DNA from: Kiritimatiellia bacterium
Lineage (GTDB): Bacteria; Verrucomicrobiota; Kiritimatiellia; JAQICX01
Reading direction: 5' to 3'
Length of the DNA: 64,000 bases
Assembly (NCBI GenBank): GCA_027858345.1
Contig: JAQICX010000252.1
Span: forward strand, 5,297 to 69,296
The notes under the pieces are model-generated. The model had not been told where the DNA came from, searched no databases, and was given only the letters and a program-made list of their open reading frames with translations. Numbering within the stretch: the first letter of the stretch is position 1; each line of letters opens with the position of its first letter. A program made the position numbers and the translations under genes. Below, one piece after another: positions 6,899 through 49,074 of this stretch.

Positions 6899-7534
6899 GT
6901 TGAACAACCTATTGTTGTTAAAATATATTAACTGTTAATTTCATAATCTAATTGAAACTTATCTGATTGTTGTTACCCTCGTTTTTTTTGCTTAATGCCG
7001 TTAGGAGCTGGCATGTACCTCGCTCCTATAATTTGTAATTTTTTTCAATTGCTCTGCCAACGAATAACGAGCTGTGTTCAAAAATAAGCGAACTATGTTA
7101 GGGCATCCTGTTCGATTAATAAACTGCCTATTGATAAAGTGTTAAACCATCGCAAATATACTAAAAGTGCAAGTTTTTCTCTTTTTTGCAAAAAAAAGAG
7201 TGCAGATGACGTTGTTAAAATTATATTCATTTTATGAATCTGTAATGCGATAATACCTGATTTTTTACTATGCAACAAGTATCCCGCGGAGCGGGATCCC
7301 GCAAGGCGGGACCGCGAGCTAAAGGCGAAAGTGTCTTATTGCAAAATCTCCAGCATTCTCACATTAAACAGTAAGCCCTATGTCATTCAACCTAAAAGAT
7401 GAAATTATAGTTGTTTTCTATAAAAAAAACAGCATATATTTGATATTATGGTTGAAAATAATTTCTATATATATTATCGTACGACCATTATAAATTGAAA
7501 CCGTTTTACATATAAAGATTTGGAGTAATTAAAC

Positions 7535-9945: not shown

Positions 9946-9946
9946 T

Positions 9947-12838: not shown

Positions 12839-13040
12839 CGGTCTGCTGGTGAGTCACGGATGGACACGGTAAGAGCGTTGTACCTATAGTGACTCTCTCT
12901 CTTTGTAGAGCCATTGTCTCGGAGAGCGAAGGCTAATACCCTAGGCTTTGTTATTCCGGGCTATCAGTCCTGCTTTTCTCTACCTTTTTTGTCCTTTGGG
13001 GCTTTTTCGTCGTTTGCTTTCCTGAACTCATAATTCTTTA

Positions 13041-14081: not shown

Positions 14082-14337
14082 TGTGTTAAAAGATAAGTAT
14101 CTTATTCATTGTTAAAATTTAGTGTGTAGTTTGTTTTGTTATTTGTTATATAATTATTTAACGTCAACTTAACATAAAGCTCAACACATTTCCATATCAA
14201 AATCTGTCTAAATTTTCCAGACCATTATAATCTATATTCTATGATTCTATTAAATATTTGTAATGCTCAGAATTATAGTCTATCCAATTCCTTTTAACAA
14301 TAAATAATTTGTTCCGTTTTTTGTTTTATGATTGATA

Positions 14338-15048
14338 TCAATGCTGTAGTTGAAGAAGTTCTGTTTTAATAGAAATATAAAGATTTGATACCCATATTGG
14401 AGCATAAATGAAATCATCAGGCAATTCTTGCTTACGAAAATCTATTGGAGTTAGAATAACGGATATGTTATCAATTCCTGTTTCTGCTGACATAACAAAC
14501 AGCTCTTCAATCGCTTCATTTCCCATGGCAAGACATCCAATAGAACAATTGCTGCCATGTATCATTATATCAGAACCAAGGTTATTACGATATTCAATTT
14601 GTGCTTTCTCAATATCAAAGGAATTAGGATAGTTTAAGCGGAGAGCCAGATGAAACATACTGTTGGGGTTAAGAGACTCTACTTTATAAAATCCTTCTGG
14701 CACCTGTTTGTCTCCCTCTTTGAGTTTGTGACCAAGTTTGCCACTAGCTCCCAAAATGGAGTATGATTTAAGAAAAACAGGAGGTTGGGAAACCCAAACT
14801 TCAAGTTTTTTATCCTGCTTGATACCAACCAATACAATGTTCTGAGGAGGATAATCAACGCCAATTCGCTCGAAATCAGGGGTAATGCGTTCATGGACTA
14901 TTGAACCAAATTGCTCAATACGTTCCGCAACAGTTTTATTCCCCCTTAAATTTTGTACTTTCGCATATATATCTTTGTGGCATTTTAAAAGCACAAGCCC
15001 AACTACAGTAATAGCCACAAGAAAAATGTAAACACTTTTAATTTTCAT
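14338..15048 (-). CDS. L,D-transpeptidase (YkuD-fold)
   Basis: N-terminal TM anchor. Catalytic 'IMIHGSNCSIGCLAMGN' (His/Cys motif of LD-TPases). Confidence 0.7.
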   Translation of the reverse strand: MKIKSVYIFLVAITVVGLVLLKCHKDIYAKVQNLRGNKTVAERIEQFGSIVHERITPDFERIGVDYPPQNIVLVGIKQDKKLEVWVSQPPVFLKSYSILGASGKLGHKLKEGDKQVPEGFYKVESLNPNSMFHLALRLNYPNSFDIEKAQIEYRNNLGSDIMIHGSNCSIGCLAMGNEAIEELFVMSAETGIDNISVILTPIDFRKQELPDDFIYAPIWVSNLYISIKTELLQLQH

Positions 15049-15703
15049 TCTCTATGTTTATTGAGCTTTTCATATTCTTTTTTGTCAAAATAATAAAATC
15101 TTTTAGTAACGACTTGTATTGGGGATGATTTATTTGCTTTAAAATTATTTCAGCTTGATCAGGTCTATCAATATAGCACCATGCACTTGCCTCTATCATT
15201 ATAAGAGTTTCTTTTAGTGTTGTACCTTCGTATGGAGTATAAAGCTTAACAATTCCCTTACAAACAGAATCTTGTTGTTTTTCGACAAGAACAAAATCAA
15301 TGTTTTTTCGGGCTTCTTGTGCCAATTTGATCTGAGTAAGGTGTTCGCCTGTATTACCATATTGCAAAACTTTGTAAAATTTTGCAATTTGTGCCTCCCA
15401 GGATTTTTGGTCATTTTTCAAAATATCATCGCATATTTTGAATGGTTCCTGTACTTTCTGTTTGTTCATGTTTGTTGTATCTTGACAAATTAAATATGTT
15501 GCAAGCGTAATTTTAACCTTTCTTAAATCATTGCTTGTAAGATTAGCATTGGATACATTTGTTCTTAATAATTGTATCGTTTTAGGGTTATTCCATTTGT
15601 TTGTAGAATTCAAATCATCCTCTACAATGCTAAAAACATTTTCTTTCGCAAAACAAGTAATTAAAGCTATTAAGTTAATAGCAACCATAAGTTTAACTTT
15701 CAT
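15038..15703 (-). CDS. secreted hypothetical protein (signal peptide ...CFAKE)
   Basis: ORF with a cleavable signal peptide. A J1-junction remnant (KTHESATNAYFRLDFDENNIKLW) lies immediately upstream at 15704-15798. Confidence 0.5.
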   Translation of the reverse strand: MKVKLMVAINLIALITCFAKENVFSIVEDDLNSTNKWNNPKTIQLLRTNVSNANLTSNDLRKVKITLATYLICQDTTNMNKQKVQEPFKICDDILKNDQKSWEAQIAKFYKVLQYGNTGEHLTQIKLAQEARKNIDFVLVEKQQDSVCKGIVKLYTPYEGTTLKETLIMIEASAWCYIDRPDQAEIILKQINHPQYKSLLKDFIILTKKNMKSSINIENEN

Positions 15704-15798
15704 CTTACCAATTTCCTTTCTCTACTTCTGTCCAAAGTTTAATGTTGTTCTCATCAAAATCTAATCTAAAATATGCATTAGTTGCCGACTCATGAGTT
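15704..15798 (-). pseudogene. orphan remnant of the conserved J1 junction of the large secreted-protein family
   Basis: Minus-strand translation gives 'KTHESATNAYFRLDFDENNIKLWTEVEKGNW*'. This matches 'VKTHESATNAFFRLEFDENKLNIWTKDS' of 22328..25528 and 16444..17505. Confidence 0.55.
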
Positions 15799-16428
15799 TT
15801 AATCAGCGCTATCTTTACTTAGAATTGTTGAAATTCTTTTATTTAACAGATTCAAGTCTTGGGTATAAGAAGAATCACCTTTTTGGGGTAAACTATGCAG
15901 TCCATATCTCTTTGCATAATTGAGTTCGACAATCTGAAGTCCTATCGGAGACATTTTCTTGTTAGACTTTGCATCAGGAAGTAAAAGCTTAACTAAACTA
16001 CAATTATTCGTCCAACTAATAATACCATAACCTTTGTTCTTTTCAACATTAATACCAGCAGGAGTTCCATACTTTTCAAATGTCTCACGCACAACATATG
16101 TTTGTTCTTCTTCCGAACTTGTATGTTCCTGTGTATAAATCACAGATATAAGTTTATTAGTACTAAAAAGGTAAATAGCCTTGTCAAAGAGATTAGTACT
16201 ATACTTTTCGACAAGCCCTCCTTGAGGCTTATTTTTATCAGGCTTTGTATTTACAATATCTAGACCTACGTTAAAGACTTCGGCATTTGGATGGTTTTCC
16301 ACAAACGTTTTCCAATCCATTCCAATCTGAACATGATATACTGTATCAGGAATTATGTTTTTATTATCTTCTTTGGCAAATAATGCTATAGCACATGTCA
16401 TTAAACTTATAATTACGATCTTTTTCAT
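15799..16428 (-). CDS. secreted hypothetical protein (candidate partner/immunity for the 353 aa module)
   Basis: Signal peptide 'MKKIVIISLMTCAIALFAKED'. It sits directly downstream of the 353 aa alternative C-terminal module. Confidence 0.5.
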   Translation of the reverse strand: MKKIVIISLMTCAIALFAKEDNKNIIPDTVYHVQIGMDWKTFVENHPNAEVFNVGLDIVNTKPDKNKPQGGLVEKYSTNLFDKAIYLFSTNKLISVIYTQEHTSSEEEQTYVVRETFEKYGTPAGINVEKNKGYGIISWTNNCSLVKLLLPDAKSNKKMSPIGLQIVELNYAKRYGLHSLPQKGDSSYTQDLNLLNKRISTILSKDSAD

Positions 16429-16443
16429 TTTATTATATCCTTA

Positions 16444-17505
16444 CTATTTATTTGATGGTTGTAACATTCCTGCTCTACCAATATTGTTTAAATCATCTAA
16501 TATTAACAAATCACCTAAGTCCAATAATTGAATAATTTCAGTTTCAATCTGAACTCTTGTGGTAGCACCATTCTCAACAATAGTACGACCTGTCAAATTA
16601 TTGTTTAAATCCATAACTGTTTCATTATGCGGGTTACCATTAAAAATTCCTGTTCTTTCATGAGCATCTGCTAGTCCTTGAGCATCTTCGGAATTCCAGT
16701 CTAAAGTCATTATTGCATTCCAATAAGCATGCCTTGCAGCATCTGCTCGACCATTATGAATTCCTCCTCCTAAACCTGTTAGATTTACTTGAGCCCAGAG
16801 TACTGCTTCATCTCTTAATTGATCAACGGTTAAACTACGGACAGGATGGCTAATACACCATGCAATCTCACCTTCTCCTACCGACAAATTAAATACAAAT
16901 AGTTTTGCAAAACAGTTGGTCATTTCTGCGACTTCAACCTGTTCCGTCTGTAAACCTGATGTCCAACAATAAATATTTATATCCTTACCTGTACCAGACT
17001 TCATTCCTGACCAGATATAATATTCGGCAGGAAGTTCTACTTCCATTTCAACATCTAGCTCAACATCGTCTTCTTGTAGAACACCAATACTTTTATAGGA
17101 ATTTACAGTTGCAGGGTCAATGAGTTTTGAGCTTGACATATCATCAGTCTTAAAATACAGCTCTGGTGATATCCAAAATAAAATCTCAAAATCATTCGTC
17201 CACAAATCAGTATTATCAAGAACATAAGTTACATCAATATCATGCTCTCCTGCCTCAATCCCCTGAACAAAATAGGTTTGCTCGGCACCATCAGAAAACA
17301 GATCATCATAAGAGTAATTATGATACGCCTGAATAAGGTTGCCATTTGGAATATATGAATTCGTTCTTGTTATCATAGCATTACTGTCTTTTGTCCAAAT
17401 TTTTATTTTTGTTTCATCAAACTCTAATCTGAAGAAGGCATTTGTTGCACTCTCATGAGTTTTGACTAAGATTGGCATAAAATCCAGCCATGTGCAGTTC
17501 CCCAT
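16444..17505 (-). CDS. alternative C-terminal module of the large secreted-protein family (begins at the J1 junction, then diverges)
   Basis: The first 95 aa ('FMPILVKTHESATNAFFRLEFDETKIKIWTKDSNAMITRTNSYIPNGN...AYHNYSYDD') are about 80% identical to the mid-region of 22328..25528. The remaining 250 aa are unrelated (ending '...RHAYWNAIMTLDW...'). Confidence 0.6.
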   Translation of the reverse strand: MGNCTWLDFMPILVKTHESATNAFFRLEFDETKIKIWTKDSNAMITRTNSYIPNGNLIQAYHNYSYDDLFSDGAEQTYFVQGIEAGEHDIDVTYVLDNTDLWTNDFEILFWISPELYFKTDDMSSSKLIDPATVNSYKSIGVLQEDDVELDVEMEVELPAEYYIWSGMKSGTGKDINIYCWTSGLQTEQVEVAEMTNCFAKLFVFNLSVGEGEIAWCISHPVRSLTVDQLRDEAVLWAQVNLTGLGGGIHNGRADAARHAYWNAIMTLDWNSEDAQGLADAHERTGIFNGNPHNETVMDLNNNLTGRTIVENGATTRVQIETEIIQLLDLGDLLILDDLNNIGRAGMLQPSNK

Positions 17506-17760
17506 CGACAGATATACTGCCTACCCCTGCAATAAACTCAAGATCAGCAGTTCCACCTACTAGAGCCGAATACGATCCAGCTTTTAATTCAACTTCAATA
17601 AGATCATTTTCATTTGCACCAGTTTCGGAGTCTCCAGTCTCCATTCACACTGATTCCCGCACCAGGACCTTCTTCCAGATCATCGGGGATTTCATGCTTC
17701 TGAAATGGGCTTCCATATCCAGGAACTTCAGTCTGAGGACGGTAAGCTTTTAGGTCTACT
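17453..17760 (-). pseudogene. frameshifted fragment of the J2 junction ('..AYRPQTEVPGYGSPFQKH..GDSETGANENDLIEVELK..GGTADLEF')
   Basis: Homologous to residues 740-800 of the 1066 aa protein. There is an internal 'gagactggagact' duplication, and the fragment is fused out of frame onto the start of 16444..17505. Confidence 0.55.
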
Positions 17761-17788
17761 TTCGGAACAATGATTTTCCCTTCTTTAT

Positions 17789-18271
17789 CTAAGCAATAAA
17801 TACCATACCAAGAATTATCAGTTCAATAATTCCTATTAATAACAGCATAGCATTAATTATTGTGTGCATTCTGCATTTTTTTCTAATACTAGCAATATAA
17901 TTCCAAGATGTAGATGCAATAATAAAGGTGGCAAAAACACCAACAAGTATCACTTGTAGACCGTCAGGCAAGCAACCATATAATATTTGCATTGCATCGG
18001 GACCAAAAAAAAGAACTAGCAAAAAAACAGAAAGAATAAATTCCCAAAATGGCCAACGTGGATTACTATTAGCAACAAGAAAAAAACCTGAAATAAAGCT
18101 TACAATACTAACCGTAAATGCCGGACCACCAACTAAAAACAAAGCAAGTAACATTGCCCATCCCCCCGTTGGCCTAACATCTCCACTGATTAAAAATATA
18201 GCATACTTGGCAATTAACATGGACAAAGTTACAGCAACTATGCACACAGACATATGAATTAATTTTTTCAT
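17789..18271 (-). CDS. small polytopic membrane protein (about 5 TM)
   Basis: 160 aa, strongly hydrophobic with about 5 predicted helices. It is embedded in the cassette array. Confidence 0.5.
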   Translation of the reverse strand: MKKLIHMSVCIVAVTLSMLIAKYAIFLISGDVRPTGGWAMLLALFLVGGPAFTVSIVSFISGFFLVANSNPRWPFWEFILSVFLLVLFFGPDAMQILYGCLPDGLQVILVGVFATFIIASTSWNYIASIRKKCRMHTIINAMLLLIGIIELIILGMVFIA

Positions 18272-18319
18272 TATTATAAAATCCTAAATTTAAAATATAA
18301 CATTCCCTAAAGCAAGTAA

Positions 18320-19201
18320 TTAAGGTATAGTTTCCCATTTTTGAGTCACAAGACCTTGAGTAGTACTTAGCACATAAGAATTAGTACTAGCTTTCAAATG
18401 TCTAATCAGTTCAACATTTATTTTCTGAGGTTTTTCCTTTAGCACCTCGACAACATAAACATCAAGCCACCATTTATCTTTCTTCGAAAGAGCAACAAGA
18501 TCTGAAATGTTTTGCAGTTCAATTCTCTTTTTCACATCTTTAAGTTCTTCGTTATCAGAAAAAAAATGTTCTGAAAGTAGCTTAGCTCCATCTTGCAGGG
18601 AAACGTTATATAGATACCGAATAAAACCTGGTTTAGCTTGAATTTTATGTTTTTCAAGAAGTCGTTTATAGGTTGAAAAATCAGCAGAACCATTCTCATT
18701 ATATGCATGTACCTCACCAAGCCAGTTTTCTGCGATTGAAACATCTACCATGTTTGTACATTCTAAAACAGGTAATAAACCACAAGTAATATCATCCTTA
18801 CTCATTGAAAGTTCACGCATAATAATACCAACAATTAATGGAGATCGAGCATCTTTAGATGTTTGACGAAAAAATAGTAGCTGCCTCATTATCTCTGGAC
18901 CATCATCTGACAGTAAACGTGAAAAAGAGTTTAGTTTTTCTTGAAGTTCTTCTTTAGTGTCAACTGCCAGAAACTCCACATTATTGGATGATACTAAACT
19001 AAGTAAGAGTTCCTGTGCCTCAATATGTGGTTTAATACTTGTGTGATTTTTTTTCTTATTAGGTTCTTGAGCATAAATACATACAGAAAATAAAATAAAG
19101 ACTATAGTTAGCACAGCAATACCAGTAAATCGATTAACGATACAGTTATTGAATTGAATATCAGGTATACCAATTTCATTGTTTTTTACATTTGTGTTCA
19201 T
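18320..19201 (-). CDS. secreted/membrane-anchored helical 'partner' protein, paralog 3 (candidate immunity or foldase)
   Basis: Shares 'QLLFFRQ' and a C-terminal 'KWWLDVYVVEVLKEKPQ' block with 19654..20466 and 21395..22306. It has an N-terminal hydrophobic segment. Confidence 0.55.
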   Translation of the reverse strand: MNTNVKNNEIGIPDIQFNNCIVNRFTGIAVLTIVFILFSVCIYAQEPNKKKNHTSIKPHIEAQELLLSLVSSNNVEFLAVDTKEELQEKLNSFSRLLSDDGPEIMRQLLFFRQTSKDARSPLIVGIIMRELSMSKDDITCGLLPVLECTNMVDVSIAENWLGEVHAYNENGSADFSTYKRLLEKHKIQAKPGFIRYLYNVSLQDGAKLLSEHFFSDNEELKDVKKRIELQNISDLVALSKKDKWWLDVYVVEVLKEKPQKINVELIRHLKASTNSYVLSTTQGLVTQKWETIP

Positions 19202-19208
19202 AATAATT

Positions 19209-19568
19209 TTATCTTTCTATCTTGAGTTTAAGCATACTTGTAGTAGGCGTAAGAACGATTGGGTAATCATCAATGGTGCCATGCGTAACTGATGGAGTTG
19301 GTATATCAACATTCCAACCTAAGTTTTGCCCTGGTGGGTCAGTCGCATCACCAGAAAGTCCCGTAACAGCTGTCTGCCAAAAATTTACATGATATTCACT
19401 CGATGGCGGATATTTTGTTTCGGCATTCACATCAATTTCAGAGTCATTTTCAATAGCATCAATATATGCAGTGAATTTGATTGTAAAAGAGCCTATAGTG
19501 GAGCGATTATCATTAAGTCGCTTTGCAAGATCATATACCGAGCCTCCACCATGACTATAACCAATCAT
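19209..19568 (-). pseudogene. N-terminally truncated alpha/beta-hydrolase (lipase-like) C-terminal module
   Basis: It starts exactly at the 'GYSHGGGSVYDLA' nucleophile-elbow motif and is homologous to the last 120 aa of 22328..25528. No upstream homology remains. Confidence 0.55.
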
Positions 19569-19653
19569 AGCTATTTGATTAACAAACTGGTTTAATACTG
19601 TAGTCTTTCACCCCCCGCGACACCGTGAACTGACATAACAAAAAGCCTGTTTC

Positions 19654-20466
19654 TTATTCAAAGTTTATTTGTTCGTTTTGGATTTTTTGAACCATGTTAC
19701 TGACGATATAATTATTGCTAAGTTCGAATTCTTTAATAATTTCTGGAACTATAAGTTTAGGTTTTTGGCTCATTAACTCCAATATATATAGCTGTATCCA
19801 CCATTCTGTATTATCAGCAAGCACCTTAATCGTTTTGGATTTGTCAGAGTATTTTGTTTTATCCATAAGTGATTTTGCTTTATATTTACTAAAATTGATA
19901 TTTGCAAAGGTTGACAATGCACTCTCTGGTGATGTTGTATACATATATTTTACGAGCTCCATATTTTTTGTATACATATTTTTTTGTATTAGATTCTTAT
20001 AGTGATTAAATTGATATGAATGTTTTTTTTGATCATAGTCAATATTTTCAAGCCATTCGTAAATCTCTGCTTTCATAACATCATTTGTTGTTCCAATATA
20101 CGGAATAATTCCAGCATACTGATCTGTTTTTGAAATATTTAATTGTTCCATAATATATAATGGCAACAATTTCTCCATTTCATTATTAGCATTCACCTTG
20201 AAAAATAGTAATTGTGCAATAAACTCTGAATTCCCTCCTGATTCTTCTTTAAAATCATTTAGTTTTGCTTTAAGTACAAACTCTGATGTTATTCCATCTG
20301 GAAATAATTTCTGTCTTTCTAATAAATTTGTTGAACTCAACATTTGCAAAAAACATTGGACTTGTTCGTTTGGATTAATTACTTGATTCTTTACTTTTAT
20401 TTGTTCTTCTGCATTTCCAAAAGATATAATCATAATAGTTCCCAATAAAATTAATTTTTTATACAT
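19654..20466 (-). CDS. secreted helical 'partner' protein, paralog 2
   Basis: Signal peptide. Shares the 'IAQLLFFKV' and C-terminal 'EWWIQLYILELMSQKPKL' blocks with its paralogs. Confidence 0.55.
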   Translation of the reverse strand: MYKKLILLGTIMIISFGNAEEQIKVKNQVINPNEQVQCFLQMLSSTNLLERQKLFPDGITSEFVLKAKLNDFKEESGGNSEFIAQLLFFKVNANNEMEKLLPLYIMEQLNISKTDQYAGIIPYIGTTNDVMKAEIYEWLENIDYDQKKHSYQFNHYKNLIQKNMYTKNMELVKYMYTTSPESALSTFANINFSKYKAKSLMDKTKYSDKSKTIKVLADNTEWWIQLYILELMSQKPKLIVPEIIKEFELSNNYIVSNMVQKIQNEQINFE

Positions 20467-20485
20467 TGTTTTTCTTCCTTTAATA

Positions 20486-21398
20486 TTATTTTGTAATTAC
20501 GGACATAAGCTGTCCCTCTATACCGTTTAAAACAACAGGCAAATCATCTATAGTCATGTGTGTACACGTTTGTTGTGCCGCATCAATATTCACTTCTGCC
20601 GGATCTCCTAAAGCCGGATTAGCGATCAACCCTCCATCTAGTCCGTAATCAAACCAGTCACTCAAAGGATTTGCTACACCTTCCTGATAATACGTAACAT
20701 GATATTGAGACCCAGGAGGTCGTCTGTTTTCTTGCGATGATGATACTTGAGTAACAGCATCTATATATCCAGTAAAGCCAATAGAAAACGTACCAATTGC
20801 TGACCTATTAGTATTCAAGCGTTCGGCGAGATCATGGGTGGAGCCGCCTCCATGGCTATATCCAAAAATAGCAACATTTGAAATATTTCTCATTTGTATA
20901 GCGTTTACAATCTCATCATAGACTTGCCCGTCCCCATTGTTCTGTACATTATCTTCTCCATACATATGAACATCATAACCTTGCGAAAACAGATCAACAG
21001 CTAAGTTAAAAGTTCCTTCATTTGGAGCTGCTGGATCAATAGGATTGTCCTGAGATTCTCCCCCTAAAGCAATTACAATACTTGTAAATGGATAAAAATG
21101 AATTTTGTCCGACTCAACATCTATACTGCCTACCCTTGCAATAAACTCAAGATCAAGCAGTGCCGCCTGCTGGATTTTCCACCCATACTGTTTTCGTGTC
21201 ACTGCTGAATGTTACTGTTGCCTCTGTTCCTGAATCTAATATGGCATTCCCCATACTCTGGCTGTCCCACACCTTGATATTTGTGTTATTGCGTTTAAGC
21301 ACATAGGTCAAGCCTGCTGGAGCAGGATACGGTTCGGCTTTTAATTCAACTTCAATAAGATCATTTTCATTTGCACCAGTTTCGGTATCTCCATTCAC
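20486..21398 (-). pseudogene. orphan J2 + alpha/beta-hydrolase C-terminal module, frameshifted by a 1 bp insertion near 21160
   Basis: ORFs 21153..21398 and 20486..21202 together are collinear with residues 765-1066 of 22328..25528 (about 60-70% identity). The 'GYSHGGGSTHDLA' motif is retained. Confidence 0.6.
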
Positions 21399-22306
21399 TC
21401 TGATTCCTGCACCGGGATCTTACTTTTGTTTTCATACTTATTGTTTTTCTCAATTTCATGAACAACATCAAGAACAGCAGTATTATCACTCTTTTTTAAT
21501 TGTTTCATTAATTCAGGAGTGCTAAGCTCTGGATTCTTTTTAATCTTCTCGGCAACATAAAGTTGTATCCACCATTCTGGACGTTTTGAAAAGTTAGAAA
21601 GAGCATTAGTAACATTTGTATTAATAGGAGGTAAAGGTTTTGATAATCGATGCTTTTTTGCTTTAGAGTCACTGCGTATTATTTCAGCAGATTCTATTAA
21701 GTTAGTTTTTGCCTTATCGTTGTCATTAACAAGAGAGAGAATTAGTGATTTAAGAGCTTCATCCGGAAGACCACTATACATGTACTCAATTAGAGCTTTA
21801 GGCGGATCGTATTTCCGTGCCGTTAGGTAAGCTTCAAATGGCTGGTAGTATCCTTCTGCAATCTTACTATTTCCTCGTATTCCATCAAGAATTTCTCTTG
21901 TCTCATCATAAACAGTGGGATTATCAGTTTCTAAATACATAGCAACTGCCTCTATAATGTTAGTGTCAGAAACAGATTTAATTAAAAAAGATCCAATAAT
22001 CATTGTTGCATGATATTTTTTTTCATCTTTTATAATAGTAACACGATACAAAATTAGTTGCGGAATAATTTCAGCAATATTCGACTGTGTGCTTTTTAAT
22101 TTTTCAATAGATTTCATAACATCTTCCTCTGATGCTTGCTTTTTCCAATGGCGTAGCAAAATGGAAGTAGTCTGCTCAAACTGTTCTTGTACTTCGGGTT
22201 CAGCAACAAGCTGTTTTCCATCTTTATTTATTTGTTCTGCATTTGCTACGTGTAAAAGACACATAAACAAAACAATTTCTATTATCAATCTTACTTTTGT
22301 TTTCAT
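21395..22306 (-). CDS. secreted helical 'partner' protein, paralog 1
   Basis: Signal peptide 'LIIEIVLFMCLLHVANA'. The C-terminal block is 'EWWIQLYVAEKIKKNPEL'. Its stop codon overlaps the start of the downstream orphan module. Confidence 0.55.
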   Translation of the reverse strand: MKTKVRLIIEIVLFMCLLHVANAEQINKDGKQLVAEPEVQEQFEQTTSILLRHWKKQASEEDVMKSIEKLKSTQSNIAEIIPQLILYRVTIIKDEKKYHATMIIGSFLIKSVSDTNIIEAVAMYLETDNPTVYDETREILDGIRGNSKIAEGYYQPFEAYLTARKYDPPKALIEYMYSGLPDEALKSLILSLVNDNDKAKTNLIESAEIIRSDSKAKKHRLSKPLPPINTNVTNALSNFSKRPEWWIQLYVAEKIKKNPELSTPELMKQLKKSDNTAVLDVVHEIEKNNKYENKSKIPVQESE

Positions 22307-22327
22307 ACTTATTCTTTCCTTTTATAT

Positions 22328-25300
22328 TTACGGATTAACATGTCCTATAAGTTGATTTATAACACCATTTATAACATTTAGATGGTCATCTATGTTGCCA
22401 TGTTCCAAGTTTGCCCCCCATGCCGTCGTTGTAACATCTAGTTCAAAATCTGCCCCTGGAACAGGTCCACCACCCAATTCAAGAACTCCATTATTTTGAT
22501 AATAATTTCCAAGAAAAGCAGTACCTGGAGGCCTTCTATTTTCCTGTTCCGCAAGTGGCTGCTTAACGGCATCAATATAAGCCGCATAAGTAATAGTATA
22601 CTCGTGGTTATTAAGATTCACAGCCAGATCATATGTAGACCCACCTCCATGGCTGTAGCCAAAAACTGCAATCTGTGTAACATTTCGATTGTTAACAGCG
22701 TTTTCAACTTCTTCATAAGCAACTCCTCCCCGATCTTCAGAGGCAACAACATCCTCATTGTACATATGAACGTCATAGCCCTGTTGATAAAGATCTATTG
22801 CAATCTCGAATGTACCATGATTACCTGGATCATTAACAGGATCATCTGGATTCTGCCCTTCACCACCCAACACAATAACTACACTTGTAAACGGATAAAA
22901 ATGAATTTTGTCCGAGTCGACATCTATACTGCCTACCCTTGCAACAAACTCAAGATCAGCTGTGCCACCATCTGGATTCTCAACCCATACTGTTTTAGTA
23001 TCACTGCTGAATGTTACTGTTGCTTCTGTTCCTGAATCTAATATAGCATTCCCCATACTCTGGCTGTCCCATACCTTGATATTTGTGTTATTGCGTTTAA
23101 GTATATATGCTAAGCCTGCTGGAGCAGGATATGACTCAATTTTTAATTCAACTTCAATAAAATCATTTTCATTTGCACCAGTTTCAGTATCTCCATTCAC
23201 TCTAATTCCTGTACCTGGATTTTCTTCCTGATCATCAGGAACTGCATGTTTCTGGAATGGATTTCCATAACCAACACCTTCAGTCTGCGGACGGTATGCT
23301 GTCATGCCTATCGAAATAAAACTAAAACTAACATCCTCTGAATCCAATTCATAATTATCTAGCAAATATGTAATTCCAACACTATGCACCCCCGGCTGAA
23401 GACCTTGAACATAAAGTGTTTTCTCCGCTCCTTCTTCAAAAATATCATCATAAGAATAATTATGATATGCCTGAAGTCGATTGCCATTAGGAATATATGA
23501 ATTTGTTCTTGTTATCATTGCGTTACTGTCTTTTGTCCAGATGTTTAGTTTGTTTTCATCAAACTCTAATCTAAAGAAGGCATTTGTTGCACTCTCGTGA
23601 GTTTTGACTAAGAATGGCATAAAATCTCCAGCATTGTCAAGGTCATTAACATTATTTGTGCCGTCGTTGTCAGCATCTTCAAGTCCGGTAAACATGGAGA
23701 TATTGTCAGATTGGTTTGAAACAACAAGAGCACAGGAGGTAAGAGAATAAGATGCTGAATGATATTCGTCACCACTAAACTCCAGATCAACAATCATATC
23801 TCCTAAATCATCGCTACAGCCTATGACTGAGAAACCTTCACTGGTTGAATAAGGAGACTCCTCAATATCAATTTCCCGAGATATGTCGCCTAATGTAAAA
23901 ATATCAGTATTCCCATCAGGTGTAATATCCAATGTTCCATTAAGACCATAATTTGCACACACGCTGTGCAAAAAATCTATATTAACAGACGCATTAGGTG
24001 AATTTAAAATATTGATTACATTTTCCGGACACATCTCAGAATCAATTATCCATGTTCCATGACTGTAAGCAACATAGATGGATACATCAATATCATCGGA
24101 ATCGGGTTCCATCTTTTCCTCTGTAGCCTCAACTGAAATATTATATTGGTAATACCCAGCATGATCAAGGGTTGTCAGACTGTCAACGCCCGTATCCAAC
24201 GAAAAAGAAGCATACTTAAAGGCATCCTGCAGTCCAATAATTGGACTGCCAATAATTGTACTGCCGAAATCAATTGTATCCACGTCACTGTCCTGTTGAA
24301 AAACAGAACCGCTTCCTGTGGCAGTGCAAGTTATTGGTTCTGGATTAAAAATATATGGTGTTGTGCCATACAATAAAGCCGGACTACCTATACTTACTTT
24401 TGCATTAACGTTCAGATCGCCATACAAATTGTTACATCCACACAAAATATAATAATAATAACCATCATATAATGAACCTATATCAACTGTCATTGTCGGT
24501 ATGTAAAACGAAACATCTACTCCTCCTCCACCAGCAGTTGTTTCCATCGTCAGGGGTGAAGAGGTTGTAGTCATCGTCAAAGGTGAAGTAGAACTGCTTG
24601 ATTCTTTAAATTGGCTATTCCCAAGATAAGGATAATACCAACCATAACACGTGATTACCCAAGGATCCATTGTATACACTCTAAAGGCAACATCAGATTC
24701 CGTAAGTTCAGGAGAATAATTTGACTCAACTTCAAGATTTCTAGACAACTCGACATTCAACGGTTGTCCTATAGAACAAATTTTATTCGTAAATAATATA
24801 TTATTTGTATATGATGTGAGGAAGATATTGGTTGAACTACTCCCCATGATCATTAACATATAATCATTATCATCCACTGCAGATAGCTCCATGATACAAT
24901 TAACCACTGTCTCTGCATACTCATTGTTGCTATCTAATGGGTCAGTATGATTAAAATGAACTTCGTCATAGTCATTTGTACTATCTCCGTCTGTATCAAA
25001 CAACCATGGATTTGTTCCATATTGCATTTCTTCAGCATTATTAAGTTCATCTTCGTCAGGATCTCCAAACAAAGATTCTCCTTCAAAAGAGTTGGAAACA
25101 CATGGATTGAAGTTTGTATACATGACTTCAAAAAGATCTGGCAGCTTATCACCATCTGAGTCAAATAGTTTGGCATTCAACCGTTCGATACCATTAGTTG
25201 AAATTGAATTTGTGCAGTAATATTCAAAATTGTTTGATAGACCATCATTATCCCAGTCTGGCGGGGTATAAGCCTTAGGATCAAAACCATAATAAATTTC

Positions 25301-25528
25301 AACAATATCATAAGTACCATCACCATCTGTATCTGAATTAGTGATGCTAGTTCCATACAGTAGAGTTTCTCGACCATCGCTTATTCCATCACCATCTGTA
25401 TCATACAAAGTCCAGCATGTATAAAACCTTGAAGTATCATTGGTAGCATTATAGTCCACCCATGTGTAAACATTAGTTGAAAGATCTACTTCTTCTGTAT
25501 CCTCAATAAACCAATTCCTGTTGACCAA
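22328..25528 (-). CDS. large multidomain protein: TSP3-type Ca-binding repeats, Ser/Thr/Cys-rich middle, J1 and J2 junction motifs, C-terminal alpha/beta-hydrolase (GxSxG lipase/esterase-like) domain
   Basis: It has many 'DTDGDG..D', 'DSDGDKLPD' and 'DTDGDSTNDYDE' aspartate repeats, and a 'FGYSHGGGSTYDLA' nucleophile elbow near the C-terminus. The ORF opens at a TTG immediately after two stop codons. Confidence 0.7.
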   Translation of the reverse strand: MVNRNWFIEDTEEVDLSTNVYTWVDYNATNDTSRFYTCWTLYDTDGDGISDGRETLLYGTSITNSDTDGDGTYDIVEIYYGFDPKAYTPPDWDNDGLSNNFEYYCTNSISTNGIERLNAKLFDSDGDKLPDLFEVMYTNFNPCVSNSFEGESLFGDPDEDELNNAEEMQYGTNPWLFDTDGDSTNDYDEVHFNHTDPLDSNNEYAETVVNCIMELSAVDDNDYMLMIMGSSSTNIFLTSYTNNILFTNKICSIGQPLNVELSRNLEVESNYSPELTESDVAFRVYTMDPWVITCYGWYYPYLGNSQFKESSSSTSPLTMTTTSSPLTMETTAGGGGVDVSFYIPTMTVDIGSLYDGYYYYILCGCNNLYGDLNVNAKVSIGSPALLYGTTPYIFNPEPITCTATGSGSVFQQDSDVDTIDFGSTIIGSPIIGLQDAFKYASFSLDTGVDSLTTLDHAGYYQYNISVEATEEKMEPDSDDIDVSIYVAYSHGTWIIDSEMCPENVINILNSPNASVNIDFLHSVCANYGLNGTLDITPDGNTDIFTLGDISREIDIEESPYSTSEGFSVIGCSDDLGDMIVDLEFSGDEYHSASYSLTSCALVVSNQSDNISMFTGLEDADNDGTNNVNDLDNAGDFMPFLVKTHESATNAFFRLEFDENKLNIWTKDSNAMITRTNSYIPNGNRLQAYHNYSYDDIFEEGAEKTLYVQGLQPGVHSVGITYLLDNYELDSEDVSFSFISIGMTAYRPQTEGVGYGNPFQKHAVPDDQEENPGTGIRVNGDTETGANENDFIEVELKIESYPAPAGLAYILKRNNTNIKVWDSQSMGNAILDSGTEATVTFSSDTKTVWVENPDGGTADLEFVARVGSIDVDSDKIHFYPFTSVVIVLGGEGQNPDDPVNDPGNHGTFEIAIDLYQQGYDVHMYNEDVVASEDRGGVAYEEVENAVNNRNVTQIAVFGYSHGGGSTYDLAVNLNNHEYTITYAAYIDAVKQPLAEQENRRPPGTAFLGNYYQNNGVLELGGGPVPGADFELDVTTTAWGANLEHGNIDDHLNVINGVINQLIGHVNP

Positions 25529-26355
25529 ATCAGTACATACAAAAAATCTAGTTCGTCATCAGAAAGTGTAGCTTCTCCCCATTCAACAGTAAGTTGTACA
25601 CCATTTGTCAGTTGGTTCACGGCAGAGAATCTAAGATTACTTACAACACTTGAACTTCTCATTGCCATAGGTATGCTGAATATAAACAGTTCATCTAAGT
25701 CAGGCTGTGACTGCTCCCAGACATATGCCATTAGATCGTCTTCTCCAACAATCAAATCATAACGCATAACAATTCGTGAAGGATCATAACATGCCAACAA
25801 CCAATCCTGCTGATCTTGTTCTTTCTCTGAAAAATCAAAAAGTTCATTAAAGACAAACCAGTCAGGAGAATAGTTGATCTCTCTGTCAAAAGATATTAGT
25901 TCTTTACCATCTTTATTGGCAATTACAACTTTGGAATCATCCGAATTTTCATATACCCATACTGGATAAGTGCGAACTCCATCTTTCTCTTCGGCAACAA
26001 GTCCTGCAAGGAAACTGTAATCAAACCCCTTATAATTAAGAAGTGCAATTGGTCTGCCTTTCTGATAAAGAGGTACACTTGGATCAGGAGGTGCAACCCA
26101 TAAATATTGATATTGATCATCAAGATACCTGGTTGCAAGGTCTTCAACATTTAAAACTTGATTAGTCTCAAAATTATAATATGCTCTGTAATCATATATC
26201 AGTTTTTTTTCTAAAACACAGGTAGATGCGTTAAGAATAAAATTGGAAAGAATTAGTAACAGGACAAAGATGATTTTGTTTTTCATTGGAATAACATCCT
26301 TACTTATAGTTTGTGTAAAAGTTGCTATTTTACATACTTTAGCAAATATACACAA
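25486..26355 (-). CDS. secreted protein with Sec signal peptide; possibly the frameshift-separated N-terminus of 22328..25528
   Basis: An internal start 'MKNKIIFVLLLILSNFILNAS' gives a good signal peptide. The ORF ends 43 bp inside the start of the next ORF, in a different frame. Confidence 0.5.
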   Translation of the reverse strand: MCIFAKVCKIATFTQTISKDVIPMKNKIIFVLLLILSNFILNASTCVLEKKLIYDYRAYYNFETNQVLNVEDLATRYLDDQYQYLWVAPPDPSVPLYQKGRPIALLNYKGFDYSFLAGLVAEEKDGVRTYPVWVYENSDDSKVVIANKDGKELISFDREINYSPDWFVFNELFDFSEKEQDQQDWLLACYDPSRIVMRYDLIVGEDDLMAYVWEQSQPDLDELFIFSIPMAMRSSSVVSNLRFSAVNQLTNGVQLTVEWGEATLSDDELDFLYVLIWSTGIGLLRIQKK

Positions 26356-26380
26356 GAAAAAATCACAAAAACTATAGTCC

Positions 26381-26575
26381 CCTTAATTTTTAGGTTGAGT
26401 ACCCCTCAGTCATGCACGCATGACAGCTCCACTAAAAGAGGGAGCAGTTGTAAAACTTGCAATTCAAACGGTTTGCACAACAACTCACCCACTCCTCCCC
26501 TTGAAGGGGAGGTGCCGAAGGCGGAGGGGGCGTATCGGGCATAATTTATTGAATATTAAGCTTTTACACATATTT
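26381..26575 (+). repeat. about 190 bp GC-rich structured repeat, copy 1 (family A)
   Basis: About 90% identical over the first 130 bp to 57343..57565. It contains the hairpins GTCATGC-n2-GCATGAC and GCTCC-n-GGAGC. Confidence 0.8.
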
Positions 26576-26869
26576 TTTGGTTCTTCGTAGATTATTGTGG
26601 ATGAGAATTGTTAATAATAGACATTTATATTCAAAAATAAGGGGCAACGCCCCGAAATAGCAAAGCCTAGGGCAGCGCCCTAGGTATATAACAATGCAAT
26701 ACGCATTAAGGGGTGAAGCCCCGAGATAAACATGCTTTAAAGATAGCTTATCTCAGGCTTTCAGCCCTTAATTATTATGTTATATGTTAACCCAGAGCGT
26801 TGCTCTGGGCTATGTTATTACGGGCTTTCAGCCCTGAATATGCTAGCAATATCAATATAATTATCCACA

Positions 26870-26960
26870 ATAATTTACGAAGAAACTATTTTTTATATTT
26901 ATCACCCGTTTGGTGATAAAATAATGTTTTTTCTGCTAGTTTTATTGACTCAAAGGAACA
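26870..26960 (-). repeat. about 80 bp repeat with TTTATCACC-n5-GGTGATAAA palindrome (copy 2, inverted orientation)
   Basis: Its reverse complement matches 5950-6030 ('tttgagtcaataaaa.tagcagaaaa.acatt.ttt.tcaccaa..gggtgataaatat.aaaaata'). Confidence 0.7.
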
Positions 26961-26987
26961 TTTAGTCATTCAAACGTAAAATTAAGG

Positions 26988-28721
26988 TTACTCTTTGAAG
27001 TTTTCATCAAAGAAAACTTTTTCTGGTTCCTCGATTAGTGAGTCATCTGCTTCTATTGCATCTTTTAGTTCCGCATTCAAATCAGGATCCAGCCACCAGT
27101 ATGAAAGCACAGAGCTCTCATTGCCGAATTTTGATAGAATGGTGTCTGGCCTACCAAATTTGTTCCAGTATAGCAATCTTGTTGACTGTATATTCCATAG
27201 TAGAACATATGGGCATGACTCTGTGAGAATTCCGTCAATTTCTCGGCAAATGGCATTTCTTTCATCCACATCAAATATTGATTTTTGTTTCTCTATGAGT
27301 TTATCAACTTTTTCGTTTTTAAAGCCAGTGATGTTATTGCCACTTTTTCTATCTGCCTCTTCTGATAGCCACATTGATTCTGGATCTTTAAATATGCCTG
27401 CGCCGTATGCAGCGGTTGTCATATCAAAGTTAAAACCATCCATATCCTTCATCCATGCAGCCCAGTCCTTGTTGTCAACTTCCATTTTGATTCCCGCTGC
27501 CGCCAAATCTTCCGTATAGATTGCCAGATATTTGTCAAAACCTGGTCCACGAGCCAGATACTTGAACGTAAACTCCTTGCCGTTTTTTTCGAGAATACCA
27601 TTGCTGTTTGGTTTCCAGCCTGCCTCCTTCAGCAGTTTTTTTGCTTTTGCGGGGTTATACTCATAATTAGGATTATTGCATGGAAATTCATCTGTGTAAA
27701 GATCTTCGTAATATGATTTGTGCAGAAAGTATTGATTGTATGCAAGTGTTTTGTTCATATGTTCCCGGTTGACAAGGTGAGCCAGTGCTTTACGAACTTT
27801 GGGATCCTTGAATGGCTCACGGCGCATGTTCATTGCAAAGCCTTGAAAACCTACTGGTTTATGATTTGTGATTTTTTGCTTCACAATCCAATTTTTAATG
27901 AACTTATCATCATCAGTTTCTTTCATCCACAAGCGAGATGTATATACGGGAAATATGTCCATAGTACCTTTTTTGAACTCTTCAAATGCATTCATACGGT
28001 CTGAATAGTATCTGAACGTAATGGTGTCAAAGTTATATATATTTTGATTTCTGTTATAATCCTGCTGCCACCAGTTGTTTCTTCTTTTTAGTCTTGTTAG
28101 TGTGCCTGATTTAATTTCATCTAGTTTGTATGGACCAGATACGACAGGGAACTGAGTATTTTGTTCGTTAAAAATTTTGTTTTTAAATGCATGTTTAGGC
28201 AGGATTTGAAATCCACCGGCGGCCCCAAGGTTTCTCCAGTGTATTGAGTCGGCTGTGAAACGAACAAATTTATTGCTTATAATTTCAGGTTCTTTAAAAA
28301 CAGCAAGACTTATTTTATGTGGACCTGTTAGATTTGTTGGATTCATGATTGCATTAAATGTCCAAACAATGTCCTCGGCTGTGATTGGTTTGCCGTCGCT
28401 CCACTTTGCATTTGAATCAATCTCAAAAGTAAATGTTTTTTTGTCTTCAGATATGGTCCAACTTTTTGCAATGTTTGCTGTATATTTTGAAGTAATAGGA
28501 TCCATACCTATGAGACTTTCGTATAGAAGTCCGAAAACTTCAGATGCTGTATAGCTTGTCTCTAAATAGTAGTTGAATGACTTTGGAAATTGTCCGCCGA
28601 ATAAATTTATATTTCCTCCTGGTATTGCATAGTCTGATGCTATTGGATCGAAGTTGTCCTGAGCTTTGATGCTCATAGCAATTAAAATTGCTGATAAAAA
28701 TGTAATAATTGTTTTTCTCAT
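26988..28721 (-). CDS. ABC transporter substrate-binding protein, family 5 (OppA/DppA/YejA-like)
   Basis: 577 aa with a signal peptide. Its length and motifs are those of the extracellular solute-binding protein family 5. Confidence 0.8.
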   Translation of the reverse strand: MRKTIITFLSAILIAMSIKAQDNFDPIASDYAIPGGNINLFGGQFPKSFNYYLETSYTASEVFGLLYESLIGMDPITSKYTANIAKSWTISEDKKTFTFEIDSNAKWSDGKPITAEDIVWTFNAIMNPTNLTGPHKISLAVFKEPEIISNKFVRFTADSIHWRNLGAAGGFQILPKHAFKNKIFNEQNTQFPVVSGPYKLDEIKSGTLTRLKRRNNWWQQDYNRNQNIYNFDTITFRYYSDRMNAFEEFKKGTMDIFPVYTSRLWMKETDDDKFIKNWIVKQKITNHKPVGFQGFAMNMRREPFKDPKVRKALAHLVNREHMNKTLAYNQYFLHKSYYEDLYTDEFPCNNPNYEYNPAKAKKLLKEAGWKPNSNGILEKNGKEFTFKYLARGPGFDKYLAIYTEDLAAAGIKMEVDNKDWAAWMKDMDGFNFDMTTAAYGAGIFKDPESMWLSEEADRKSGNNITGFKNEKVDKLIEKQKSIFDVDERNAICREIDGILTESCPYVLLWNIQSTRLLYWNKFGRPDTILSKFGNESSVLSYWWLDPDLNAELKDAIEADDSLIEEPEKVFFDENFKE

Positions 28722-49071: not shown

Positions 49072-49074
49072 AAT

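Follow-up and report, generated by a model that had tools for sequence, protein, structure and literature searches.

Much is known of polymorphic toxins in Proteobacteria, Firmicutes and Bacteroidota. To our knowledge, they have hardly been studied in Kiritimatiellae and Lentisphaerae, and a literature search retrieved no paper joining Kiritimatiellae to polymorphic toxins. In CDI systems (CdiA-CT/CdiI), a constant body ends in a variable C-terminal toxin with the cognate immunity gene directly downstream, and this pair is followed by 5'-truncated toxin/immunity cassettes that keep a short conserved stretch and are exchanged by homologous recombination. The C-terminal tips of Rhs/YD proteins are displaced together with their immunity genes, and the resulting orphans retain a fragment of the core. 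Neisseria MafB is a signal-peptide-dependent toxin with alternative 3' cassettes (MafB-CT) and immunity genes and without dedicated secretion genes nearby; Sec-dependent polymorphic toxins correspond to the T2SS/Sec class of Zhang et al. (2012) (PMC3482391). T6SS Tle/Tli pairs and Tox-ABhydrolase toxins combine a GxSxG alpha/beta-hydrolase tail with an exported immunity candidate, implying action in the envelope. The locus described here resembles all of these systems in the features named, with immunity genes that are putative and an exchange that is probable.

The locus lies on the minus strand of a Kiritimatiellae MAG, at 14.1-26.9 kb of a 64-kb window (the whole stretch of DNA that was analysed), and its features are collected in Table 1. 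We consider it probable that this is a polymorphic toxin island in which cassettes of a tail and an immunity gene have been exchanged by homologous recombination at two coding blocks, J1 and J2. The island encodes one protein of ~1330 aa with a Sec signal and TSP3 repeats, followed by exported putative immunity genes and five 5'-truncated cassettes or remnants. At its C-terminus, a J1 domain, a J2 domain and a small Ser-Asp-His alpha/beta-hydrolase follow one another. Of the features by which Zhang et al. (2012) recognize polymorphic toxins, a constant body with unrelated C-termini and downstream arrays of 5'-truncated cassettes were found. Such a locus would be a bacterial weapon of an ordinary kind, and the family itself is absent from the libraries searched: Pfam recovered only TSP3_bac on the main protein, NCBIfam gave nothing beyond TSP3-type matches and a YafK-like neighbor, and PADLOC and PHROGs gave zero matches. 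No secretion-system genes were found in the window. A contig from a second metagenome (L019), which stops within the array, matches the window at 99.98% identity and shows no alternative arrangement.

Table 1. Features of the island, by position in the window
Feature	Position	Strand	Basis
Main toxin gene, N-terminal part: signal peptide (MKNKIIFVLLLILSNFILNAS) and N-terminal domain	25486..26355	-	Sequence read directly
Main toxin ORF, 1066 aa: TSP3-type Ca-binding repeats, central region, J1, J2, hydrolase	22328..25528	-	TSP3_bac (Pfam), TSP3-type (NCBIfam)
J1 domain, ~127 aa (DADNDG...FMPFLVKTHESATNAFF...ITYLLDN...); pre-toxin-like, beta-rich, conserved	23288..23668	-	J1 profile and identity breaks
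J2 beta-sandwich domain (TAYRPQTEG...GIRVNGD...ENDFIEVELK...IKVW...TVWVENP...KIHFYPF)	22890..23310	-	AF2 pLDDT ~90
C-terminal minimal alpha/beta-hydrolase, putative lipase/esterase toxin domain, GYSHGG serine	22331..22888	-	AF2 pLDDT 92
303-aa exported protein, putative cognate immunity of main hydrolase	21395..22306	-	Signal peptide; start 21 nt past toxin stop
Apparent recombination scar: copy of the junction of toxin stop, spacer and ATGAAAACAAAAGTAAGAT (22341-22288)	21417..21468	-	29/30 nt identical; 54 nt at 80%
Orphan A: J2 domain without first ~29 codons, divergent hydrolase allele	20486..21428	-	Sequence comparison
270-aa exported protein, putative immunity for orphan A	19654..20466	-	Paralogy
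Orphan B: 5'-truncated hydrolase fragment, neither J1 nor J2	19209..19634	-	tblastn matches hydrolase aa 43-175
293-aa membrane-anchored or exported protein, putative immunity for orphan B	18320..19201	-	Paralogy
160-aa polytopic membrane protein, possibly orphan immunity gene	17789..18271	-	Sequence only
Orphan C': decayed J2-module remnant starting AYRPQTE	17505..17758	-	Sequence comparison
Orphan C: intact 353-aa ORF, J1 domain (17500-17175) and unrelated DUF6973 tail	16444..17505	-	Pfam and J1 block identity
209-aa exported protein, putative immunity for DUF6973 tail	15799..16428	-	Position, co-variation test
Remnant D: ~85-100 nt J1 fragment (LIKTHESATNAYFRLDFDENNIKLWTE)	15699..15800	-	BLASTN
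221-aa exported protein	15038..15703	-	Directly after remnant D; signal peptide

The ORF for the N-terminal part of the main gene is 100% identical to a database protein (NCBI MAG Kiritimatiellae protein PF692_15695). A T6 run (25546-25541) holds the 1-nt frameshift that parts it from the 1066-aa ORF; this site is read straight through as a continuous ORF (LDFFVC(T/N)D) in the homologs P0074, P0076, P0077, P0078 and P0079. As a result, the main gene in this assembly may be inactive; alternatively, the frameshift could be an assembly error. The 1066-aa ORF carries DxDxDG motifs at aa 43, 66, 91 and 618, and the constant body is conserved among homologs (N1/N2 matches).

A first-pass annotation of this DNA had described J1 and J2 as short junction motifs. 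The peptides it picked out (J1 at 23614-23555 and 23542-23480, J2 at 23209-23141) are instead the first strands, at the 5' edges, of ~330-nt blocks within the 1066-aa ORF that encode whole domains of 110-140 aa. The recurrences it had seen were largely recovered. By BLASTN, the J1 block (23644-23319) returns as the start of the 353-aa module (17500-17175; 328 nt aligned at 78% nt identity, E 1e-70) and as a stranded remnant of ~85-100 nt (15800-15699; 77%, E 1.7e-13). J2 returns at 21421-21087 (89-94% nt identity) and at 17758-17556 (78%, E 5e-41). In the latter copy the J2 motif is not the 5' end, as homology begins ~90 nt further upstream than had been marked, at AYRPQTE (17758). Across these repeats E ranges from 1e-13 to 1e-141; a tblastn search of the whole window found no further copies of either block. 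The proposed nucleotide-level conservation is moderate, with J1 at 81% and a synonymous difference (pS) of 0.42 between the main gene and orphan C, and J2 at 89-94% and pS 0.15-0.31 between the main gene and orphan A. With dN/dS ~0.13-0.23 in both blocks, much of the conservation sits at the protein level; these values also indicate that the copies diverged under purifying selection, as parts of working genes before they became orphans.

No model of Pfam, NCBIfam, PADLOC or PHROG covers J1 or J2, in agreement with the earlier remark that the motifs were undescribed, and a J1 profile found only 26 cluster representatives at E<=1e-3 among 1.84e9 proteins. In the PDB, Foldseek matched the J1-J2 region best to the N-terminal Ig-like domains of PAD2/3/4 (E 1e-11, TM only ~0.3), from an AF2 model of low confidence in its J1 part; a search for a PAD_N or PAD_M sequence match in Pfam found none. 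The two blocks are predicted to encode beta-sandwich domains that resemble the N-terminal Ig-like domains of PADs. Profile-profile alignment of J1 with J2 (hhalign) was topologically sensible yet weak (probability 18.6%).

J1 is followed by many different tails. Among 33 sequences, which come from narrow sampling (short metagenomic contigs from few samples only), we counted 16 tail clusters after J1, about 13 of them with a substantial tail. These tails include J2 plus hydrolase and DUF6973, and a separately found protein (P0051) has a Pfam PAD arginine deiminase catalytic domain after J1 (3e-17). Within the window, the tail of orphan C matches DUF6973 (PF22322; 67 bits against a gathering cut-off of 27, E 1.5e-18), a family for which a literature search found no papers. 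Four tail families form the expressed end of the protein in one locus and an orphan in another (L011/L004, L010/L007, L015/L016, L009/L013), and orphans were also present in L003, L004, L007, L010, L012, L013, L015 and L016. The family of the tail co-varies with the family of the next ORF (4/4, 2/2, 2/2 and 2/2), with gaps of -17 to +21 nt between the two and hydrophobic N-termini in all of the downstream ORFs.

Comparison of relatives places breaks in identity at the edges of J1. In L007 and L010, J1 is 85-98% identical at the nucleotide level, identity drops to 0.2-0.4 at its 3' edge and the tails are unrelated. The main gene of the window differs from that of L009 by 8 of 396 nt over 24068-23673, then falls to ~80% identity inside J1 and is unrelated after ~23340, so that breaks fall at both the 5' edge (~23673) and the 3' edge (~23340) of J1. 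The 5' ends of orphans lie at J1 positions 1, 3, 6, 10, 15, 16, 20 and 25, and some lie further upstream; the analogy that had been drawn with VENN and PxxxxDPxGL therefore overstates the precision of the junction. The clustering of 10 of 12 orphan 5' ends within ~25 codons at the J1 edge is what an integron-like or shufflon-like cassette system might leave, with J1 and J2 as recognition sites of a site-specific recombinase. We rejected this mechanism and regard it as exceedingly improbable, since the breakpoints are scattered rather than fixed at one position and neither an integrase, an invertase nor a transposase was found in or beside the island. All J1 and J2 copies in the window are, moreover, direct repeats inside coding sequence, and orphan A has the scar of an illegitimate junction at its 5' end.

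The hydrolase that follows J2 in the main gene is predicted to be a minimal alpha/beta-hydrolase. Its closest Foldseek matches were the A. fulgidus lipase, B. subtilis LipA and monoacylglycerol lipases (E ~3e-4, TM ~0.6). Besides the fold, it has the nucleophile elbow (GYSHG, at aa 957) of the alpha/beta-hydrolase superfamily and the Ser-Asp-His triad, in which Ser84 and Asp111 are invariant and His168 nearly so across 31 sequences. No sequence match to the lipase families of Pfam or NCBIfam was found, and sequence searches of PDB chains with the hydrolase, the J2+hydrolase profile and the DUF6973 tail returned nothing meaningful. From its modeled fold, the domain is probably a lipase or esterase that acts outside the cytoplasm.

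The hydrolases and their neighbors could alternatively be secreted or surface digestive enzymes, with the downstream exported proteins serving as dedicated chaperones or foldases (like the lipase-specific Lif) rather than as immunity proteins. A stand-alone secreted hydrolase with a signal peptide and a homologous partner gene does exist, ordinary lipases are the closest folds and no secretion or contact-delivery apparatus was found nearby. However, the same body carries at least ~13 unrelated tails, an arginine deiminase among them, and each tail has its own tightly coupled exported partner. There are also arrays of 5'-truncated, decaying cassettes that keep their partners, and partner divergence is extreme (26% identity); according to Zhang et al. 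(2012; PMC3482391), both typify toxins and immunity proteins that evolve in antagonism. We thus find the digestive reading rather improbable and prefer that of toxin-immunity pairs.

C-terminal swapping, which had been proposed for both blocks, is supported at J1 and takes a different form at J2. In every database protein that carries J2 and has its C-terminus present, J2 is followed by the same hydrolase family and never by a different fold; the first-pass annotation had named a constant downstream domain as what would refute swapping in favor of simple paralog duplication, and J2 shows just this. The J2+hydrolase module also occurs as a stand-alone secreted protein with J2 directly after the signal peptide, and in one such locus (L002) the hydrolase is followed by a gene like that for the 270-aa protein. 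J2 is the N-terminal domain of one putative toxin module, that of the hydrolase. Between the main gene and orphan A, a sharply bounded block of ~335 nt is ~90% identical, the hydrolases are 49% identical in amino acids and the putative immunity proteins only ~26%. Synonymous difference, at the J2 value given above within the block, jumps to 0.77 (saturated) in the adjoining hydrolase, which indicates that hydrolase alleles were exchanged there. By sequence comparison, what is exchanged after J2 is the allele of the hydrolase and not the fold.

A history without module exchange, in which the 3' end of a single gene was merely duplicated in tandem and the copies then diverged and decayed, would account for several of these observations: the main tail shares its hydrolase family with orphans A and B, the genes for the 303-, 270- and 293-aa proteins are paralogs (~26% identity) and J2 always precedes the hydrolase. 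For J1 this reading is already contradicted by the unrelated DUF6973 tail of orphan C. The jump in synonymous difference across the J2/hydrolase boundary gives the two parts different histories, the same tails are expressed in one locus and orphan in another, and the similarity of J1 copies does not follow the family of the tail. Further, the dN/dS of the orphan copies is well below 1, which argues against divergence after silencing. Duplication without exchange is therefore highly improbable as an account of the island, and module exchange remains the favored one.

The cassettes downstream of the main gene are in various states of decay. As the earlier annotation had noted, an orphan at 21398 (81 aa, GTG start) begins in the last codons of the 303-aa gene (stop 21395-21397), in another frame. 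It is the first part of orphan A, which a 1-nt insertion near 21156 splits into ORFs of 81 and 238 aa. The homology of orphan A to the main gene starts at ~21421-21428, and the scar abutting its J2 block now forms the 3' end of the 303-aa gene. Junction motifs had been said to mark every orphan, which is wrong for orphan B (19634-19209): its ORF starts at IGYSHGGG, in the middle of the hydrolase domain, and has neither motif. In orphan C', 7 nt are duplicated in tandem and ~148 nt are deleted internally; it ends before the hydrolase and is fused to J1. The 160-aa membrane protein had no family match in Pfam, NCBIfam or PADLOC/PHROG. Remnant D is flanked by the stop of the 209-aa gene on one side and, on the other, by the ribosome-binding site that serves the 221-aa gene; from its position, the 221-aa gene is probably an orphan immunity gene whose toxin tail was deleted.

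We also considered whether the orphans are independently expressed small effectors, with J1 and J2 merely their N-terminal domains. Orphan C is an intact ORF with an ATG, gene callers predict similar ORFs starting MPILVKTHES in other metagenomes, and stand-alone J2-hydrolase genes exist. The true stand-alone forms have signal peptides, however, whereas the orphans in the window, orphan C included, do not. Orphan A is frameshifted, B is truncated within the catalytic domain, only fragments are left of C' and D, and homology to the main gene often starts upstream of the called start codon, at variable points. A promoter and terminator scan was not above shuffled background, a result that in itself has no bearing on orphan expression. 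We judge small effectors a very unlikely reading and continue to treat the orphans as displaced tails.

Under module exchange, the body (N-terminal domain, TSP3 calcium-binding repeats and central region) would carry an exchangeable toxin at the C-terminus of a Sec-exported protein. J1 would lie between body and toxin as the general adaptor ("pre-toxin" domain) of the family, and every toxin tail would be followed by its own exported immunity gene. New cassettes of tail and immunity gene would arrive by ordinary homologous recombination, with the conserved J1 coding block as the homology arm, or the J2 block in the case of hydrolase alleles. The displaced resident tail would retain a piece of the block and remain downstream with its immunity gene as a promoter-less, 5'-truncated orphan, which frameshifts, deletions and truncations would then erode. 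On this account J1 and J2 would not be dedicated recombination signals but conserved sequences that code for domains, and recombinants at their edges would be intact functional chimeras.

Concerted evolution, by gene conversion of the J1 copies in one locus, was rejected, as intralocus nucleotide identity is 0.57-0.76 against a family mean of 0.71. Exact matches within the window run to at most 23 nt in J1 and 29 nt in J2. With intralocus identity this low and exact runs this short, the main gene would today recombine inefficiently with its own orphans, which may be fossils and not a reserve that can still be drawn on.

A more far-reaching and unlikely possibility is that the J1 domain, tail and immunity gene together form an integrase-free self-propagating cassette, and that PAD-like J1 and J2 are an unrecognized delivery or processing module of the PVC group. 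Such a cassette would loop out between direct J1 repeats and re-enter other genomes by a single J1 crossover. If this is true, the module would be able to take lipase-like hydrolases, an arginine deiminase and many folds without a family into target cells, and the locus would represent a new class of polymorphic toxin with two nested exchange points.

As a defined junction domain, J1 offers a handle for searches for the family. With ~13 or more unassigned C-terminal domains and a candidate immunity partner for each, the family would be a compact place to look for new toxin and immunity folds. It is also a clear natural example of domain-edge breakpoints at two nested levels, exchange of fold after J1 and of allele after J2; the general picture of how such loci evolve is unchanged by the island.

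Set against the known systems, the island has no TPS domain, FHA repeats, VENN motif or, within the window, CdiB-like gene of CDI; its junction is a folded domain of ~110-140 aa, whereas VENN is a motif of four residues, and export here is apparently Sec-dependent. Likewise, the YD repeats, PxxxxDPxGL motif and PAAR/VgrG context of Rhs/YD proteins are absent. From MafB it differs in its N-terminal domains (no DUF1020/MafB-N match), its phylum (PVC group) and its predicted Ig-like junction. With respect to the Tle/Tli systems, neither T6SS genes nor PAAR, VgrG or Hcp were found in the protein or the 64-kb window, and the hydrolase is very small (~185 aa), a minimal fold with its own preceding beta-sandwich domain. 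To the Ig-like (cupredoxin-like and middle) domains of PAD2/3/4, the likeness is one of predicted fold, together with acidic loops of Ca-binding type here (DxDxDG, NGDDDN...ENDL); in this family, however, the J1 and J2 domains precede a hydrolase or other tails.

The genes of the region all lie on the minus strand. The J1 peptides (23614-23555 and 23542-23480) and the J2 peptide (23209-23141), which the first-pass annotation described as recurring junction motifs, fall inside a 1066-aa ORF (25528-22328), the main gene, encoding a putative toxin. We compared 14.0-26.6 kb with itself by repeat finding and BLASTN and recovered every recurrence that had been listed for the two motifs; tblastn retrieved no additional J1 or J2 copies across the whole 64-kb window. 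The orphan ORF reported to start at 21398 does begin within the last codons of the preceding gene, which encodes a 303-aa protein, and in another frame. The original observation is real and largely accurate. However, J1 and J2 are not short motifs but the first strands of ~330-nt conserved blocks, and the J2-type copy near 17.6 kb, although present, runs ~90 nt further upstream, so that J2 is not its 5' end. Nor does every orphan carry a junction motif, as the cassette at 19634-19209 opens mid-hydrolase without J1 or J2.

Features of the main gene and repeated segments found by self-comparison
Feature	Position	Strand	Matching segment	Identity	E value (BLASTN)	Remark
Upstream 289-aa ORF	26355-25486	-				begins with a signal peptide
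J1 domain	23668-23288	-
J2 domain	23310-22890	-
Repeat	17175-17500		23319-23644	78%	1e-70
Repeat	15699-15800		23506-23605	77%	1.7e-13
Repeat	20685-21421		22497-23223	74% over 747 nt	1e-141
Repeat	17556-17758		23115-23310	78%	5e-41
Repeat	17505-17564		22917-22976	85%	2e-11

The 289-aa ORF has a 100% identical counterpart among the proteins of an NCBI Kiritimatiellae MAG and is split from the 1066-aa ORF solely by one missing base (T) in a T6 run (25546-25541, minus strand). Because five homologues are continuous across this site (LDFFVC(T/N)D), the real gene encodes ~1330 aa, and the present assembly carries either a mis-assembled or an inactivated version of it; possible readings of the T6 run are an assembly error, a pseudogene or an on/off site prone to slippage. 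The main protein consists, in order, of TSP3-type DxDxDG repeats, a central region, the J1 and J2 domains and a ~185-aa C-terminal domain. The window gene starts (25486-26355) with a Kiritimatiellae-type signal peptide and an N-domain also present on unrelated proteins, whereas Victivallales-type relatives (L007, P0048 and P0051) have a two-helix membrane hairpin and another ~300-aa domain at the N-terminus. These differing N-termini suggest that the trafficking end can be exchanged as well.

Behind the main gene, the array encodes a 303-aa exported protein, orphan A, a 270-aa exported protein, orphan B, a 293-aa protein, a 160-aa membrane protein, orphan C', orphan C, a 209-aa exported protein, a J1 remnant and a 221-aa exported protein. 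The orphans are 5'-truncated cassettes. Orphan A combines a J2 block with a divergent hydrolase, its ORF split by a 1-nt insertion, and orphan B is the hydrolase fragment at 19634-19209. Orphan C' is what remains of a J2 module after a 7-nt duplication and a ~148-nt deletion, and it is fused directly to orphan C, an intact 353-aa ORF in which a DUF6973 tail (Pfam 1.5e-18) follows a J1 domain. Only ~85-100 nt of J1 remain between the 209-aa and 221-aa genes. We infer toxicity of the main protein, immunity from the partner genes that follow the tails, the export route beyond Sec and silence of the orphans. The last gene of the array (15038-15703) overlaps by 11 nt with a gene for an exported YkuD/YafK-like protein (14338-15048; LdtF/DpaA-type, NCBIfam 1.7e-22).

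A word-indexed search with J1 and J2 identified 46 proteins, all metagenomic and unannotated, while a J1 profile retrieved only 26 proteins at E<=1e-3 from 1.84 billion cluster representatives. Among these profile hits, one (P0051) has a PAD arginine-deiminase tail (Pfam 3e-17) and one (P0055) a tail with a weak DUF900-like hydrolase match. Scans of genomes and metagenomes yielded 16 loci, for which a Victivallales MAG is the sole named source. Downstream of J1, these relatives carry many unrelated tails (16 clusters among 33 when pooled). Eight loci contain a full gene and then, 2-3 kb downstream, a second 5'-truncated J1 copy, and four tail families each serve as the expressed terminus at one locus and lie as an orphan at another. 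In whatever context, the ORF after the tail co-varies with the tail family; its N-terminus is hydrophobic in every case, and its start lies between -17 and +21 nt relative to the toxin stop. The tail of P0048 contains SGHGSH ... AGCS, which by eye suggests a His/Cys protease.

Two comparisons locate the edges of J1. Between L007, a locus with a hydrolase tail, and L010, with an unrelated tail, J1 is 85-98% identical, and identity drops to 0.2-0.4 at its 3' edge. The main gene and L009, from another metagenome (~110-505), differ at 8 of 396 positions over 24068-23673 (98% identity); 5' of this tract they are clearly diverged, and the tract stops at the DADNDG start of J1, inside which identity is ~80%, with unrelated sequence past ~23340. 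Both J1 edges are therefore natural breakpoints. In J1, the main gene and orphan C differ at a proportion of 0.42 of synonymous (pS) and 0.13 of nonsynonymous (pN) sites, and a dN/dS well below 1 indicates that the copies diverged within working genes, not after silencing.

The earlier reading of the junctions as products of recombination thus holds for J1 but applies to J2 only in modified form, with hydrolase alleles exchanged rather than folds. In all 28 proteins that extend from J2 to the C-terminus, the last domain belongs to a single hydrolase family, and a J2-only profile search returned extra fragments that left this picture unchanged. The J2-hydrolase module also stands alone, right behind a signal peptide in the database proteins P0036 and P0040 and as a gene of its own, with a 270-like partner behind it, in the related locus L002; the module naturally begins at TAYRPQTEG (23310) rather than at the J2 motif. 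The main gene and orphan A are ~90% identical over 23223-22890, falling to 55-60% toward the hydrolase, and their partner genes are ~26% identical. Synonymous differences amount to 0.15-0.31 in the J2 block and 0.77 (saturated) in the hydrolase, so these adjoining segments differ in history. On the 5' side, similarity stops at a scar (21417-21468) that duplicates the main gene's "toxin stop / immunity start" junction (22288-22341; 29/30 nt identical) and abuts the 5' end of orphan A. The scar supplies the final codons for the 303-aa protein, whose C-terminus it altered, and marks an illegitimate join, not a specific site.

An AlphaFold model of aa 601-1066 was confident for the J2 and C-terminal domains and poor for J1, which has a shallow alignment; its best PDB matches were the N-terminal Ig-like domains of human PAD2, PAD3 and PAD4 (E 1e-11). 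J1 and J2 share an order of elements (an acidic loop, D(F/L)..I.V.L, IK(I/V)W and T.(Y/W)V(Q/E)), but profile-profile comparison gave only a weak match (probability 18.6%) for a possible common origin. Modelled separately (pLDDT 92), the C-terminal domain matched small lipases/esterases (A. fulgidus lipase, B. subtilis LipA and monoacylglycerol lipases; E ~3e-4, TM ~0.6). Two residues, the serine of GYSHGG and an aspartate, never vary across 31 sequences, and a histidine is almost invariant.

Orphan 5' ends fall at J1 positions 1, 3, 6, 10, 15, 16, 16, 20 and 25, and further upstream in two cases; they are clustered, not fixed. J1 copies inside one locus resemble each other (57-76% identity) no more than the family does on average (71%), showing that homogenisation is not ongoing. 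Exact matches in the window reach at most 23 nt for J1 and 29 nt for J2; exchange of the main gene with its own orphans would be rare.

The island (14082-26987) has a G+C content of 0.31-0.37, below that of its flanks, and lies between same-strand genes for a family-5 solute-binding protein (26988-28721) and an ABC permease (13041-14081); this setting suggests insertion into a peptide-transporter operon. The 64-kb window contains no genes for secretion systems, integrases or transposases. Immediately upstream of the toxin gene are two Acido-Lenti-1 RNA motifs in inverted orientation (Rfam RF01687, 37 and 43 bits; 26640-26684 (-) and 26791-26835 (+)), also detected as terminator-like hairpins. 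At 47932-49746, an AAA_21 ATPase gene precedes a RloB-like gene, a pairing typical of abortive-infection/defence systems. A contig from an independent metagenome (L019, JGI 3300051639) is 99.98% identical to the window over 13.4 kb (6443-19857) and breaks inside the cassette array; one population was therefore sampled twice, its assembly hindered by repeats.

Polymorphic toxin systems join a 5' gene body that stays constant to toxin-immunity cassettes and replace the 3' tip through recombination (Zhang et al. 2012, PMC3482391). The window locus follows the same logic. It was tested against the CDI, Rhs, MafB and T6SS-effector families and fits none of them, and we found no TPS domain, VENN, YD repeat, PxxxxDPxGL, PAAR, LXG or adjoining secretion genes in it. 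Our literature searches retrieved no paper linking Kiritimatiellae with polymorphic toxins and, for Lentisphaerae, none on the J1 toxin family. The locus differs from known systems in its Kiritimatiellae/Victivallales lineage, in a junction predicted to be a folded, PAD-like beta-sandwich domain instead of a short motif, and in two nested levels of exchange, with different folds swapped behind J1 and hydrolase alleles behind J2.
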